Positions 203 to 63,840 of a stretch of DNA of 64,000 nucleotides are shown piece after piece. This DNA comes from Eledone cirrhosa. Lineage: Eukaryota. The DNA lies in NCBI GenBank assembly GCA_964016885.1, contig OZ024758.1:30814001-30878000 (forward strand), given 5' to 3'. The stretch's first letter is position 1, and each line of letters opens with the position of its first letter. Position numbers and translations under genes: made by a program. The notes beneath the pieces are model-generated. The model was not told the DNA's origin. It was given only the letters and a program-made list of their open reading frames with translations, and ran no database searches.

Positions 203-799
203 TATAACAGGTAATTGTAAGTTCATTATTTTCATCAACGTTTCACTCAAGATTAGCAGTTTGAAATCGTGGTATACATCAACAGCTCAGCTTGTTTATC
301 TGGGGTCTATATTCTAAAGGGGCTCTTTTATATTAGTTGTAGGAGTTGTAAAAGGGATGGGTTGTAGGGAGTTAAGAGAATTTGAAAAGGGCCTAAAAGT
401 TAGGGATTGAAGGTTAAAAATTAAAGTTACACTGTAATTTAAGTTACACATCAAAAGTAAAAGACTTGGGATCTCTTACAAGCACCTTAAAAAATCCCTC
501 AATATATATATATTGAGGGATATGTGGTATATATATATATATATATATATATATATATATATATATATATATATATATATATATATACCACATAGATATA
601 TACCATAATAAAATACTTGGCACACTTTTCACCATCTTTTGATCTTATATTATATATATATAAGCAAAAGGGATATTTAATTTGTTGGTAAGTCAACAAA
701 TATAAATGTTTATAACAGATTCGAAGCACTCGACGGTTTTCTGGAGTATAATATCAATGATATTAATAAATGGAAGCTATATTTATAAAACCATATTTA

Positions 800-856
800 T
801 TCTATTATATATATTTCAAGGGTACCAAAACTTTGGTACGCTATCATCAGATAAAA
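800..856 (-). ncRNA. Type I hammerhead ribozyme
   Basis: TTTTAT-CTGATGA-stem II GTACCAAA/TTTGGTAC-GAAAT-ATAT-ATA/ATAGAA. Confidence 0.75.
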
Positions 857-1010
857 TACAAAGTTTGTTTCATAAATATATATATATAAATATATATAAA
901 TATATATATATATATATATATATATATATATATATATATATATATATATATATATATATATATATATACGATATTAAACAAATGGAAACTATATTTATAA
1001 AACCATATTT

Positions 1011-1074
1011 ATTTCATTATACATATTTCAGGGATACCATATTAAAAATATGGCATGCCTTCTTCAGATAAAAT
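1011..1074 (-). ncRNA. Type I hammerhead ribozyme
   Basis: ATTTTAT-CTGAAGA-AGGCATGCCATATT...AATATGGTATCCCT-GAAAT-ATGT-ATA/ATGAAAT. Confidence 0.75.
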
Positions 1075-1326
1075 ACAATATATAAGCAGTTTTATAAATA
1101 AATTTGACGTACCATAAAATATTGATCAACTTCCATTTAAAAAAAGTTGGTTTGGTAGTATAAAAGTTGGTAGCATAAAAGTACGTTTGCATATATATAT
1201 ATATATATATATATATATATATATATATAAACATATCCAGGAAGAAGATCTTAACGGTTCATGTTTTTCCTGAACCGTTAAGATCTCCTTCCTGGATATG
1301 TCAATATTCATAAAACAAACTTTGTA

Positions 1327-1383
1327 TTTTATCTGATGAGAGTGTACCAAAGTTTTGGTACCCTTGAAATATATATAATAGAA
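1327..1383 (+). ncRNA. Type I hammerhead ribozyme (inverted copy of 800-856)
   Basis: CTGATGA at 1333-1339, GTACCAAA/TTTGGTAC stem II, GAAA at 1366-1369, ATA triplet, stem I TTTTAT/ATAGAA. Confidence 0.75.
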
Positions 1384-1444
1384 TAAATATGGTTTTATAA
1401 ATATAGTTTCCATTTATTAATATCATTGATATATATATCTATCT

Positions 1445-59571: not shown

Positions 59572-59618
59572 TGCTTACAGCTGTTTCCTCCAAACCGAGG
59601 TTTGGATTCTTCGGAACA
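59572..59618 (-). ncRNA. Type I hammerhead ribozyme, U4C variant (inverted pLTR)
   Basis: TGTT-CCGAAGA-ATCCAAAC(CTCG)GTTTGGAG-GAAAC-AGCT-GTA/AGCA. Confidence 0.75.
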
Positions 59619-60547
59619 ATTTATTAATGCATGGACAGTTATATGACCTCCTTTTCAGCCGAGAGACATACCAATACATATTCAAACATTGATACATATT
59701 CAAACATTGTGGGTCAACATTCATTACAGAATTTAGAGTGGCAGTACACACTTCGAGATTACATTTATATTAATAGGTACAATCAAAAATCAAAGATATA
59801 GGTTAAAGTACAACATGAAGATAAGTGGTTATATAGTGCAAATGTTATATGTGTGGCACGCATGTGCGTCTTGTTTATATAGTGTGGCAGAGAGATATGT
59901 GTGGTAGAGGCACTTAGGTAGGTAAATAAGAGTGTTAGGTTGGTAGATCTGGTGGCAAAGTCTTTATATGATTGATATAGTCTGTGTGTGGAGAAATATT
60001 ATAAGCATTAAAGATAGTGCAAGCATTAAAAGTGTTATAATTATTGGAGATGCACAGCGCAGGGATGTCAAGTAATTCATGTACTTCGGCATTTTCATGG
60101 TCAAGGGAGTGTATATTTCGATTATATGCCTTTCACACAATCCACGACAATCCAGTTAGAGATCGTAGTCTGGTGTTCTTTAGTTCGATACAGGAGGTTG
60201 TTACGTTTCGAGAAACGCCATTGAATACCGGAAGTGTGTGTGTGGCTAAGGGGAGTTAATGCATGCGGGGAGGTAACTCTGGGGTTTCTATATCTAGCCA
60301 TTAAAATGTGTCCCAATATAGACCCTAAATTCTATGGTGAGGTGCACCTTCCAAGAGAGACTTTTAAAGCATAAAGTGTACTAACTATAGAGTAGTTTAA
60401 CTAAATTATGCTGAAGGTGATCATATTATTATTAAGGTGGATTAACCCATCTTAAGGTGCTACAAATGGAAATTATAGATGATGAGCGAGGATTCTAAAT
60501 TAATGATCTCTGTGGTTGTAGTCTGCTCATATGACCAGGCGCGGTGA

Positions 60548-61372
60548 TTGCAGGATTGCTTCAGCCTAAATGTCTCCACCAACATACCTAGGGCTTTCTT
60601 CTCACTACTAGATAAAAACTTCCCTCTAGGACACAAGTACCACAACCTCTTAAACAAAAACACCATTAAAATCTCATACTCTACGACGCCTAACTTAGCA
60701 TACCACATAGCTAGCAGCAATAATAGTAAAATTAGTTCTTACTTCCAACAAACAAAATCACAACGGGATGCAAACCCTCTAAATACCACTGTAGCAAGCA
60801 ACAATAGCAACGGCAGTAACAATAGAAATAACACTAGTATAAGTAATAACACCAGGGTTGCCAACCCGAACACCCAAAATCCTATATCCACCACACAGAC
60901 TTCCGCATTGCATTATAACCAGCGGACTAACGCACAGAATAATTGTAACTGTAGAGCTAATAGAACCTGCCCTTTAGATAAAAAATGCCTAACCAAGGAT
61001 GTCATATACTCATGCACAGTCACGACTAATAACTCTTCAGAAACCTATGTAGGCTCCACTTCTAACTGCTTCAAAATCAGATATAACTCGCACATCCACT
61101 CGTTCAAAAAGCACAGCCTAGCCAACTCCACCTCACTTTCTAGCTACATACACTATCTAAAATCTAAAAATAAACCATACACACTCAAATGGGAAGTGAT
61201 AGGCAGCGCGACCTCGTACAAACCACCTAATAAATTCTGTAACCTCTGTATACTAGAGACACACAATATTATCTTCTCCAACCGTAACCTACTTAACAAA
61301 AAATCTGAGGTGTTTGCAACTTGCCAGCACCGCCTCAGACATTCCTTCCAAAACTTTAAGCCCTATATATAG
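60548..61372 (+). pseudogene. PLE ORF C-terminus: linker plus intact GIY-YIG endonuclease (RT lost by 5' truncation)
   Basis: FSLNVSTNI...LLDKNFP..HKYH.LLNKNTIKISYS, an Asn-rich linker, then CNCRANRTCPLDKKCL..VIYSC.V...YVGSTS..FKIRYNSH...CNLCILE...CQHR. The ORF start is created by the inversion junction. Confidence 0.9.
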
Positions 61373-62815
61373 CAATGTCGGACTGGAACCTAACACCACA
61401 TCTAGCATCAAACACCAGAGACACACCCTATACTACATACCCAACACTAGCTGATCCATTATAACACAAACAACGACATCCCTCTGGAACCCTTCGCAGG
61501 GAAAATACCCATTTATACCTCTACGGCAGGTGTGACAACATCCACCCACTTGGACGGCACTACACCGCTCTAAGGGTAATTTGAGCATGAATTGATCGGT
61601 TGGATGGTGTTGGGCAGAGGAAACACCTTCCTTAGACAGATGTAAAATGATTTAATCGAGTAGCGCTGTTGACCAGTAGGACCGGGCTGCTGAGCGCAGT
61701 GAGTGAATGCAATGCAACTGCCGTGCGGGTTGTACGTATATGGATGATCTGACGGTCAGAGACGGGTCGCGAGGACTGCGGATTGACCTTTGGCCTGCCT
61801 GGGGACGATTATCTTTCGACATCCAATGTAGCAAGCGATGACCCAGATCTTACCAGAGATCATTGGGTCCTGAAGCAATCCTGCAATCACCGCGCCTGGT
61901 CATATGAGCAGACTACAACCACAGAGATCATTAATTTAGAATCCTCGCTCATCATCTATAATTTCCATTTGTAGCACCTTAAGATGGGTTAATCCACCTT
62001 AATAATAATATGATCACCTTCAGCATAATTTAGTTAAACTACTCTATAGTTAGTACACTTTATGCTTTAAAAGTCTCTCTTGGAAGGTGCACCTCACCAT
62101 AGAATTTAGGGTCTATATTGGGACACATTTTAATGGCTAGATATAGAAACCCCAGAGTTACCTCCCCGCATGCATTAACTCCCCTTAGCCACACACACAC
62201 TTCCGGTATTCAATGGCGTTTCTCGAAACGTAACAACCTCCTGTATCGAACTAAAGAACACCAGACTACGATCTCTAACTGGATTGTCGTGGATTATGTG
62301 AAAGGCATATAATCGAAATATACACTCCCTTGACCATGAAAATGCCGAAGTACATGAATTACTTGACATCCCTGCGCTGTGCATCTCCAATACTTATAAC
62401 ACTTTTAATGCTTGCACTATCTTTAATGCTTATAATATTTCTCCACACACAGACTATATCAATCATATAAAGACTTTGCCACCAGATCTACCAACCTAAC
62501 ACTCTTATTTACCTACCTAAGTGCCTCTACCACACATATCTCTCTGCCATACTATATAAACAAGACGCACATGCGTGCCACACATATAACATTTGCACTA
62601 TATAACCACTTATCTTCATGTTGTACTTTAACCTATATCTTTGATTTTTGATTGTACCTATTAATATAAATGTAATCTCGAAGTGTGTACTGCCACTCTA
62701 AATTCTGTAATGAATGTTGACCCACAATGTTTGAATATGTATCAATGTTTGAATATGTATTGGTATGTCTCTCGGCTGAAAAGGAGGTCATATAACTGTC
62801 CATGCATTAATAAAT

Positions 62816-62862
62816 TGCTCCGAAGAATCCAAACCTCGGTTTGGAGGAAACAGCTGTAAGCA
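62816..62862 (+). ncRNA. Type I hammerhead ribozyme, U4C variant (3' pLTR)
   Basis: TGCT-CCGAAGA-ATCCAAAC(CTCG)GTTTGGAG-GAAAC-AGCT-GTA/AGCA. Confidence 0.8.
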
Positions 62863-63079
62863 CAATAATGTTTTGAACAGTTCTTTGATTCTTATATTTC
62901 ATATAACTGCTCTGTAAATCATCTGATGTTTTTACATTGAGCTACTTAACTTACTGGTAATAAGGTAGTAATACATTATTGCCTACCACTATTTAGGGTG
63001 TGTGTAAAATACTTACAACTGCTTAAGGTTTTGTGTTTACATAACCATAAATAGTATAACTAATACTATATATATATAT

Positions 63080-63840
63080 ATATTTCCCACTCATCGGTAT
63101 ATATATATATATATATATATATATATATATATATATATATATTTCCCACTCATCGGTATATATATATATATATATATATATATATATATATATATATATA
63201 TATATATATATATATATATATATATATATATTTCCCACTCATCGGTATATATATATATATATATTTCCCACTCATCGGTATATATATAAATATATATATT
63301 TCCCACTCATCGGTATATATATATATATATATATTTCCCACTCATCGGTATATATATAAATATATATATTTCCCACTCATCGGTATATATATAAATATAT
63401 ATATTTCCCACTCATCGGTATATATATATATTTCCCACTCAACGGTATATATATATATATATATATATATATATATATATATATATATATATATATATAT
63501 ATATATCGATTTTGAGTATATGTTGGTTATATACCAACACCTCAGTAAGCAGGCAGGAGCACTCGATGAAGTGCGCAGGTTGGTTTGGTTACTCCGGAGT
63601 AATGTAAAATAAAGTTAAATAAAAAGTAAAATGTTTAAAATTTAGCTTCGTTTATAACCGAAGCTAAATTTTAAACATTTGACTTTTTATTTAACTTTAT
63701 TTTATATATATATATATATATATTTCTCACTCAACGGTATATATATATATATATATATATATTTCCCACTCAACGGTATATATAGTATATATATATATAT
63801 ATATATATATATATATATATATATATTTCTCACTCAACGC
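63080..63840. repeat. Compound minisatellite TTTCYCACTCAWCGG-(TA)n, interrupted by a fold-back insert (63508-63705)
   Basis: A 15-bp motif repeated about 12 times with variable TA spacers, also present at 59481. The hairpin 63606-63705 matches the family at 14598-14647. Confidence 0.85.

Follow-up and report, generated by a model that had tools for sequence, protein, structure and literature searches.

Paired bulged hairpins in the leaders of Hydra-clade Penelope-like elements: a likely RNA site for positioning target-primed initiation

Penelope-like elements (PLEs) are the closest relatives of telomerase reverse transcriptase (RT), and to our knowledge a single element has been studied in vitro; how PLEs choose their RNA, and what decides whether a copy ends tailed or tail-less, is the question addressed here. 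The 3' stem-loops that stringent LINEs share with their SINEs, hepadnavirus epsilon and the anchors of telomerase RNA all recruit an RT, fix its start and are borrowed by non-autonomous partners; in LINEs the stem-loop is located 5' of the start and is copied. In PAc, a Poseidon element of Anolis carolinensis, reverse transcription starts internally on uncleaved RNA, in a stem-loop, at two sites that bracket the tail; the hammerhead ribozyme (HHR) lies upstream of these starts, the target is AT-rich, and the protein is predicted to dimerize (PMC11167929). Craig et al. described the Hydra clade of PLEs, labeled an NLS in their PLE diagram and favored endonuclease resolution as the origin of the tail (PMC8557442). 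The words hairpin, stem-loop and bulge do not occur in the main text of that paper; the motif described below is visible, though unannotated, in its consensus file. Non-LTR retrozymes have been proposed to be derived from and mobilized by PLEs, and the consulted parts of the papers that describe them identify no cis signal for a mobilizing protein (PMC7229834; bioRxiv 10.64898/2026.07.22.740005).

The window, a 64,000-nt stretch of the Eledone cirrhosa genome (GCA_964016885.1, contig OZ024758.1, positions 30,814,001 to 30,878,000), shares with the Hydra-clade PLEs of PMC8557442 the CxCX5C linker, a GIY-YIG endonuclease at the C terminus, the HHR, (TA)n insertion, tandem and inverted arrangement and an optional tail. 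A 5'-truncated ORF with linker and endonuclease (60548..61372, +) lies within an inverted unit (59529-63066). A second endonuclease remnant (40115..40915, +; HHR 40852-40872) is tail-less and ends 41 nt after its HHR, and a third (9212..9630, -) is broken up by a family G copy (9643-9898) at a TA run; in family G, ACTC stands 7 nt past the short end and the partner strand is absent. The linker is complete at 60548 and 40115; at 9630 its first Cys is lost to an insertion. Pfam matches to GIY-YIG fell below the curated cut-off (E of 0.042 and 0.00032, none for 39935), and an alignment of the 60548 ORF with its homologues showed the conserved E and N surrounded by CxxC and CxH, with no internal CCHH. 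The DKT and RWK motifs of the clade were found in the consensus of full-length homologues, the window ORFs being 5'-truncated and devoid of the RT. An HHR in the pLTR, (TA)n insertion, inverted arms and the optional tail were all found in the window by pattern search. We conclude that the window elements are Hydra-clade PLEs. A Naiad or Chlamys PLE (N-terminal endonuclease, no canonical HHR) was considered and rejected, the endonuclease here being C-terminal and followed by an HHR. The 150 of 190 Rfam matches listed included no hammerhead; in these, microsatellites or palindromes matched miRNA-type models with scores under the gathering threshold. A search of viral contigs found no relatives, and no solved PLE structure was found: the sequence search gave one irrelevant match, and the best matches of the fold search were TERTs.

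The first-pass annotation had pointed to an ACTC...GAGT stem at eight positions and in family A, and all were recovered, two (7541 and 63558) lying one base off. For six of the positions the letters given are those of the antisense strand, sense being set by the HHR. The motif proved to be a stem-loop with a bulge, 5'-RYUC-[covarying upper stem]-UN-GARY-RC, on the 3' side of the HHR; the bulge, on the 3' strand, is 1 to 3 nt long with U first. ACTC-N(3-35)-GAGT alone barely exceeds chance, with 27 window matches against 17.5 +/- 4.4 (maximum 27) in 100 segment-wise dinucleotide shuffles. With the RC suffix there were 16 matches against 3.5 in shuffles, and 14 of the 16 had a (TA)>=4 run 41 to 75 nt downstream against 0.39 in shuffles (maximum 3); these 14 are not independent, since family A accounts for 5 of them and another 4 (726, 7540, 33368 and 41045) are partly related, with 81% and 65% identity plus short weak matches. 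They collapse to 7 non-alignable groups. The families had been described as unrelated, but some of them are related (E1 and E2 are 81% alike). A loose descriptor (G.U allowed, loop of up to 90 nt) showed no enrichment, with 153 matches against 170 in shuffles and 33 against 29.6 near TA runs. A junction-centered scan, in which 17 flanks pointed toward a run and 7 away, was uninformative, because 6 of the 7 "away" rows were real hairpins, or the elements that carry them, viewed from the opposite end.

Among the E families, the first hairpin (HP1) of E1 (728..747, -) follows an HHR core at 850-814; the long end lies at (TA)n 662, and the inverted arm runs to 1428, breaking off immediately 5' of the hairpin. 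HP1 of E2 lies at 7542..7561 (-), that of E3 at 33370..33400 (-; HHR 33500-33470, short arm 33645) and that of E4 at 41047..41071 (-; HHR 41176-41130); a tail-less copy (604-650) breaks off 7 nt short of the E4 hairpin. The E5 hairpin (63561..63600, -) is preceded at 6 nt by short ends at 63702 and 14599; MFE folding prefers another structure there, and E5 is one of several window hairpins that fold weakly or differ from the MFE structure (E1, -2.3 kcal/mol; E3, -2.4 kcal/mol; E5; and C). The family A hairpin (4282..4305, -) has 48 nt between its stem end and (TA)n, and inverted arms stop 7 to 8 nt before it; further copies lie at 6039-6062 (+), 6997-7020 (-), 12524-12547 (-), 50181-50204 (-) and 54021-54044 (-). 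Single hairpins on the plus strand include 4759..4792 (after a long-stem-II HHR ending at 4690, with (TA)n 59 nt later), 5113..5137 (inverted unit 4865-5183, atypical bulge, short arm stopping about 7 nt before), 5606..5685 (upper part of about 65 nt, short arm at 5229) and 7341..7360 (1-nt U bulge, HHR ending at 7304, (TA)n 38 nt later). Another (14500..14519, +) lies 31 nt before (TA)n, and no canonical HHR core was found upstream of it. On the minus strand, the hairpin of a perfect inverted unit (15215-15408) lies at 15258..15276, with a degenerate related copy at 48560-48578, and one with a UCU bulge lies at 57727..57752 in a copy too short for an HHR. Compensated stems occur as GCTC/GAGC at 6639..6659 (-; after HHR 6746-6711), at 58006..58035 (+; inverted arm from 57857 stopping just before it) and in the ORF-bearing element (HP1, 62909..62942, +; HHR ending at 62851), and as GTTC/GAAC in family D (11435). 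Family B (13659..14334, -; also 2429-2777 and 34011-34931) is the exception: it has the HHR and the two-end pattern, and no RYUC/GARY hairpin was found in it.

Outside the window, the motif was found in 31 of 61 HHR-bearing Hydra loci and, within 130 nt after the HHR, in 30 of the 61, against none on the antisense strand, none upstream and 0.86 in shuffles. Ten of the 61 had no strict hairpin and no early end; one of these has a GCAC/GTGC variant, and in one the HHR call falls in coding sequence. ACTC/GAGT, the form first put forward as the motif, is a local variant: GCTC/GAGC prevails elsewhere (57 of 63 hairpins), and the lower stem is compensated across lineages as ACTC/GAGT, GCTC/GAGC, GTTC/GAAC and GCAC/GTGC. 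Among the 63 outside hairpins the bulge opens with U in 60 and is topped by a C-G pair in 38 and by a U-A pair in 20; GA pairs with UC in 58, and Watson-Crick cells number 136 of 189 in the 2-nt-bulge register against 33 to 49 in other registers. Only 12 of 58 hairpins, those of equal length, entered a model, because MAFFT alignments of hairpins with variable loops were poor; in this set 94.8% of cells pair, four pairs change on both sides, and none of 500 shuffles reached the covariation score. A conserved cis stem-loop, as the first-pass annotation had proposed, is thus upheld by covariation, and the motif is tied to PLE ends. Run on the window, the model ranked element hairpins in its top 10 places (6639..6659 first) and as 14 of its 22 matches at E<=10, including 58006..58035; it missed nine curated hairpins (F15, E5, F57, F5a, F5b, D, F73, F145 and C). 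Counts bearing on which strand folds were mixed: G.U 13 against A.C 8, with the sense MFE lower in only 22 of 63; a second count gave 9 against 3 in the inner stem and 0 against 2 at the outer pair.

The motif had been placed at the 3' terminus, which the full-length loci contradict. It belongs to the 5' leader, between HHR and AUG, in 27 of 32 of them, 13 with two copies in the order HHR-HP1-HP2-AUG; at 3' ends it is present only as the "tail." Counting on from the HHR, HP1 starts at 44 to 70 nt (30 loci) and short ends fall at 36 to 59 nt (9); counting on from HP1, long ends fall at 30 to 41 nt (8) and HP2 starts at 38 to 46 nt (8). Many window HHR copies likewise stop 36 to 61 nt past the HHR, immediately before the hairpin. 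The relevant junction is not the TA 40 to 75 nt after a hairpin, a distance set by a second hairpin, but the TA 6 to 8 nt on the 5' side of one: copies end there before either hairpin, tail-less before HP1 and tailed before HP2, so that the PLE tail would be one hairpin module. Comparisons within one locus put the next hairpin 7, 6 and 7 nt past the junction (L024, L050 and L087); of 18 junctions with a run-on partner, 9 had no following hairpin and 3 had offsets of 2, 19 and 19. The short arm of the ORF-bearing element (59529) ends at the TA 7 nt before HP1, and its long end lies at 63066; the short end at 62905 was met again in two other runs, in 12 + 2 contigs. Read by eye, the published Hydra-1_Ajap consensus starts with HP1 and HP2 and ends tail-less.

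The fixed 44- to 70-nt spacing would also suit an accessory domain of the minimal hammerhead, serving folding, dimer cleavage or circularization; minimal PLE HHRs cleave poorly alone, according to the part of PMC4209133 consulted, and the PAc HHR is protein-assisted (PMC11167929). Such a role leaves the two copies and the end positions unexplained, and as the main function we think it very improbable; it is compatible with the explanation preferred below if a bound protein also assists the HHR. The last hairpin ends 12 to 43 nt before the first AUG in most full-length loci, and the 3' strand of the hairpins is conserved beyond the pairing, with ACT following in 55 of 63, as might be expected if the hairpins regulated ORF expression, as a translational operator or a duplex-DNA internal promoter motif, and ends coincided with them only through the A/T-rich spacer. 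However, the pLTR is TA-rich elsewhere too, yet ends cluster 6 to 8 nt before hairpins; a duplex-DNA motif would not be expected to show compensatory changes round a bulge that stays fixed, and both hairpins persist in families C and D, which lack the ORF. We consider this explanation improbable.

Families C and D are ORF-less tandem units with an HHR in consecutive units, as in non-LTR retrozymes, and both keep the HHR and two hairpins. Family D (11328..12392, -; HHR cores 12087 and 11572; HHR-to-HHR unit 516 nt) carries HP1 at 11412-11435 and 11941-11964 (-) and HP2 at 11827-11848 (-), with U.C at the outer pair; its long end, 11327, corresponds to the TA 8 nt before HP2, and the end of its short arm, 12392, to the TA 7 nt before HP1. 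Family C has a 593-nt unit with U3-A8-type HHR cores (4011-3941 and 3418-3348) and a longest ATG-ORF of 78 aa. Its HP1 (3787..3846, -) has a long upper stem that MFE folding does not reproduce, and a copy whose end is at 3262 falls 8 nt short of it; HP2 (3665..3681, -) has A.C at the outer pair, and the inverted arm ends at (TA)n 4164, at a TA 5 nt before HP2. Retention of the hairpin in these units fits mobilization in trans, which had been suggested for diverse non-coding elements; most window copies are too short to separate truncated autonomous elements from non-coding ones. The RNA data sets listed included none with the ORF-bearing element, which was the query used.

We favor the view that the paired leader hairpins are probably an RNA site bound by the PLE protein to position target-primed initiation. 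What is observed is their position, covariation, twin layout and the match of copy ends to the TA before either hairpin; from such sequence evidence, recognition by the Hydra RT/endonuclease is a likely candidate function. The endonuclease would nick (TA)n, the nicked TA end would pair with the UA 6 to 8 nt on the 5' side of a hairpin, and reverse transcription would start there. A start at HP1 would give tail-less copies, and one at HP2 copies with HP1 plus 30 to 60 nt. The hairpin used at an end would stay uncopied at that end, and the template would therefore have to run past the HHR into the next leader, as a tandem/pLTR read-through transcript or an HHR-made circle would; full-length copies would regain both hairpins at their 5' end. 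ORF-less units with HHR, HP1 and HP2 could be mobilized in trans. In 13 of 15 head-to-head inverted units in the window, one arm stops at (TA)n and the other runs into the hairpin, and in such insertions HP2 may have served one arm and HP1 the other.

The inverted arms also bear on a third alternative, that the hairpin acts in DNA, as cDNA or fold-back: the GIY-YIG endonuclease would recognize it and nick the TA 6 to 8 nt away, resolving an intermediate and fixing the ends. Near-perfect arms, with 100% identity across 126 nt and 99.6% across 1036 nt, fit fold-back, but the two arms of unit 4234-4537, a single case, bear different subfamily variants and fit two templates better. Resolution by the endonuclease is the origin of the tail favored in PMC8557442, and the Drosophila virilis Penelope endonuclease needed the tail for recognition, as summarized in PMC11167929, whereas in PAc itself the tail ends coincide with RT start sites (PMC11167929). 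The A.C at the outer pair of four hairpins is G.T on the opposite strand; against this, targets are bare (TA)n without a hairpin, and stand-alone tail-less direct copies occur (40115-40915). We regard action in DNA as rather unlikely.

How a protein might read the hairpin is the least certain part. By analogy, the U-N-G-A/U-C bulge could form an arginine sandwich of the TAR/7SK type, read by the conserved arginine-rich segment before WFNPP; the sequence pattern of such sandwiches (bulge pyrimidine, then G-C and A-U) is seen as U in 60 of 63 and GA:UC in 58 of 63 outside hairpins. In the GCAC/GTGC variants (2 of 63) the A-U pair that a U.A-U triple requires is lost. In an AlphaFold model (pLDDT 90) the basic segment is coil, which has no bearing on RNA binding. 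More tentatively than for RNA recognition as such, and with considerable doubt, we propose by the same analogy that a dimeric RT-endonuclease might grip the TAR-like pair through a Tat-like RxRxR, one hairpin per subunit, and prime both nicked (TA)n strands on circular or tandem RNA. Were that so, the tail, the long and short inverted arms, the need for a hammerhead and retrozyme-like mobilization would share one mechanism.

Our literature searches found no description of the bulged twin leader hairpin of Hydra PLEs, the retrozyme preprint being covered in part. A clade-wide covarying hairpin of about 25 nt that predicts both copy ends within a few bases offers a cis element that can be mutated, relocated or grafted onto cargo RNA. 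It further gives a rule for annotating the boundaries of Hydra elements, a possible handle for (TA)n-targeted insertion tools, and a candidate signal whereby non-coding HHR repeats could use PLE proteins.

Compared with LINE stem-loops, the proposed Hydra start lies 5' of the hairpin, and the used hairpin would be left behind. PAc is alike in being a PLE with an HHR, in its internal starts 3' of the HHR at two tail-bracketing sites, in its AT-rich target and in its predicted dimer; it differs in that its sites lie inside the ORF, its loop is AC-rich and it has no homology to the cut DNA, whereas the Hydra leaders have two separate conserved bulged hairpins that are non-coding and clade-wide, with ends 5' of them at a TA matching the target (PMC11167929). 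The TAR/7SK arginine sandwich (PMC6189040) shares the pyrimidine bulge with U first and an A-U pair two stem positions on; here the bulge is on the 3' strand, GA runs toward the stem base, the A-U pair is replaced in 2 of 63, and the candidate partner likewise has an arginine-rich basic segment. Non-LTR retrozymes, as far as the consulted parts of their descriptions go, likewise consist of tandem units that are short, lack an ORF and have a type I HHR (PMC7229834; bioRxiv 10.64898/2026.07.22.740005), and the units of families C and D are longer than the 170- to 400-nt retrozyme circles given in those parts of PMC7229834. Families C and D keep a candidate cis signal.

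The window consists of AT-rich, animal-type DNA with 78 (TA)n runs after merging, and it encodes C-terminal GIY-YIG endonuclease remnants at three places. These remnants carry the CxCX5C linker and the CxxC/CxH motifs by which the available text of PMC8557442 defines the Hydra clade of Penelope-like elements (PLEs), and their full-length homologues show a telomerase-like fold and contain the DKT motif. At 60740-60940, an in-frame Asn/Thr-rich insert separates the reverse transcriptase (RT) thumb from the endonuclease; it resembles the N-rich inserts of rotifer Penelopes, as described in the accessible part of PMC3846280.

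The first-pass annotation had proposed a 3′-terminal ACTC...GAGT hairpin shared by unrelated hammerhead ribozyme (HHR) families. The motifs it cited are present in the window. The bare ACTC..GAGT pattern is near chance (27 occurrences versus 17.5 ± 4.4 in 100 shuffles), and a loose hairpin descriptor gave no enrichment in the window. When the motif is oriented and followed by RC, however, 16 matches are found; measurement of their distance to the TA junction placed 14 of them 41 to 75 nt before a (TA)n run, versus 0.39 (maximum, 3) in 100 shuffles. Copy number inflates the count of 14, which reduces to seven groups without mutual BLASTN alignment; four of the families cited are partly related. 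Along its strand, the HHR is followed in turn by an AT-rich spacer, the hairpin, the tail, and (TA)n. Some window hairpins differ from the minimum free energy fold, and most copies are too short for noncoding status to be assigned.

Short (tail-less) and long (tailed) ends were compared in 21 pairs of copies from a self-BLAST of the window. In eleven families the short copy meets (TA)n 6 to 8 nt before a hairpin, at a TA in all cases but one, which has a TG; families B and G depart from this pattern. The comparison also revealed variants outside the ACTC pattern, namely GCTC/GAGC, GTTC/GAAC, and one 65-nt upper stem. Two families of ORF-less units carry a second hairpin, in both cases with the outermost pair mismatched: in the 516-nt tandem unit of family D the long end is a TA 8 nt before it, and in the 593-nt unit of family C one end lies 8 nt before the first hairpin and the other 5 nt before the second. 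The motif is missing from family B, which nonetheless shows both kinds of end; of the hairpin, family G retains the 5′ strand alone.

Inverted pairs whose outer end falls at a TA run were listed without bias; of the 25 rows, 10 were excluded because they were duplicates, paired different copies, or represented internal palindromes. In all 15 remaining single head-to-head units one arm halts at (TA)n and the other continues, entering the hairpin in 13 cases; the other two belong to family B. At 62905, the switch to (TA)n is seen in 12 and 2 cases in contigs of two other runs, and none of the 30 variant sites listed for these contigs, from which rare variants are lost, falls within the nearby hairpin core. 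In several head-to-head units (12556-12660, 15283-15408, 50215-50295, and 54053-54137), the inversion point lies within HHR stem II or immediately 5′ to it, so that family A lacks the CUGA half of the ribozyme; this hints that fold-back or template switching took place at the palindrome. The arms of one family A unit (4234-4537) differ in subfamily variants, the short arm matching the copy at 50215, hinting at two RNA templates.

Several other repeats were noted. Family B (13659-14334, 34011-34931, and 2429-2777) is an ORF-less tandem HHR unit of ∼430 nt. It shows both short and long ends, with different small hairpins 7 to 8 nt past each, and is possibly served by another PLE clade. Family G (9643-9898, 50316-50420, and 57309-57625) has a U3-A8-type HHR core, and one copy is inserted in a TA run within the GIY-YIG ORF at 9212-9630. 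A 215-nt copy related to family E5 (14599-14813) begins precisely at an ACTC stem, whose 9-nt bulge is atypical, and terminates at the short end; this copy may represent a mini-unit running from the second hairpin to the first. Fragments of an APE-RT LINE at 1443-2364, 35934-36230, 41296-41507, and 43779-45692 are also (TA)n bounded, and the hairpin pattern is absent at the junctions of all four. An abundant 190-nt SINE-like family, which includes nested copies, occurs at 16924-17119 and about 10 more places (26722, 32870, 38684, 51474, 55681, and others). Unrelated minisatellite arrays occupy 19878-21545, 23290-24460, 24890-25506, 27720-28460, 29230-31300, and 56337-57014, and an ORF fragment at 48786-49319 (+) resembles the C terminus of a Helitron PIF1-type helicase.

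Outside the window, 98 loci were fetched with an alignment of Hydra endonuclease regions: 78 metagenome loci, from the best 80 of 523 confirmed stretches, and 20 genome-bin loci. The latter are Hydra-clade PLEs on contigs assigned to bacterial genome bins, with 12 of the loci in a single bin; the clade is otherwise known from animals, and host contamination of the bins is likely. An HHR pattern follows the ORF in 61 of the 98 loci. With a descriptor set beforehand from the window families, the hairpin was found in 31 of these, 10 reached a (TA)n end first, 10 a contig end, and 10 had none; the 61 loci form 45 clusters, 20 with the hairpin. Within the first 130 nt there were 30 hairpins in sense, versus none in antisense or upstream and 0.86 in shuffles. 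Of the 63 distinct hairpin bodies, which include about four apparently spurious ones, 57 have GCUC/GAGC and 60 have U as the first bulge base; directly above the bulge stands a C-G pair in 38 and a U-A pair in 20. Watson-Crick cells number 136 of 189 in the 2-nt-bulge register versus 33 to 49 in other registers. Twelve hairpins of equal length, several from related families, showed 94.8% pairing and compensatory changes at four pairs, with a covariation score above all 500 shuffles and every slid control. A covariance model built on these 12 and run on the window placed ten element hairpins on top and 14 among 22 matches at E ≤ 10; it newly found a hairpin at 58006 and missed nine curated ones. 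In the portion of the PMC8557442 supplement available, the motif is visible by eye in the Hydra-2_Amil, Hydra-1_Ajap, and Hydra-2_Ajap consensuses, is present with deviations in Hydra-1_Crog, is weak in Hydra-1_Amil, and is not evident in Hydra-1_Obim. The Naiad_Mmer consensus from the same source has a perfect-looking match just after the ORF, far from the end and with a G·U outer pair; the family is annotated with a SECIS element, and the match may be chance or the SECIS itself.

The position of the hairpin overturned its reading as a 3′-terminal signal. Of the 32 loci that have some upstream sequence and an ORF of 600 amino acids or more, 27 carry at least one hairpin ahead of the first ATG, and 13 of these carry two. 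Loci that continue past the 3′ HHR then read first hairpin (HP1), second hairpin (HP2), ATG, so the motif is a component of the 5′ leader. Counted downstream from the HHR, HP1 starts at 44 to 70 nt and short ends fall at 36 to 59 nt; counted downstream from HP1, long ends fall at 30 to 41 nt and HP2 starts at 38 to 46 nt. Of 35 junctions examined, 18 had a run-on partner: the next hairpin lay 6 to 8 nt away in six, including all three same-locus cases, and 2, 19, and 19 nt away in three; it was absent in nine, where the partner was mostly also a TA-rich-run end or poorly aligned. The evidence points to a real, clade-wide, cis-acting stem-loop pair from whose positions PLE copy ends can be predicted, and we are highly confident in its structure and in the positional rule.

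A plausible, somewhat favored reading, and the simplest, is that the hairpin is an RNA initiation signal of the PLE protein. The protein would bind the hairpin, and target-primed reverse transcription would begin at the UA immediately 5′ to it; each hairpin would set one copy end, the tail being one module. Since the hairpin used would stay uncopied, the template would need to be an RNA that is either circular or the product of tandem read-through. For PLEs, the available parts of PMC8557442 and PMC11167929 document partial copies in tandem and templates left uncleaved, respectively, and the closest precedent, from the latter, is PAc, the Poseidon element of Anolis carolinensis, in which the tail is flanked by two internal sites of RT initiation. 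A serious rival is that the cDNA, not the RNA, folds and that the endonuclease recognizes a DNA hairpin: the strand indicators are split, with G·U versus A·C at 13 versus 8 overall, 9 versus 3 inside, and 0 versus 2 at the outer pair. As for how an RNA signal might be read, the U-N-G-A/U-C arrangement, called invariant, matches the secondary structure of the TAR/7SK arginine sandwich motif in the accessible text of PMC6189040. The 14 residues ahead of WFNPP average 3.8 Arg and 6.0 Arg plus Lys, and the most basic 14-mer falls in the region before WFNPP in 39 of 50 proteins. This segment is a lead only as the reader of the bulge and could be a nuclear localization signal; the full model, a dimeric RT-endonuclease gripping one hairpin per subunit, is unlikely.

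A literature search that included the TAR-type motif, with most subscription papers and Repbase outside its scope, gave no description of the hairpin, and the pair is apparently undescribed. It would belong among the RNA stem-loops that recruit reverse transcriptases, comparable to LINE 3′ stem-loops, hepadnavirus epsilon, and telomerase anchors.
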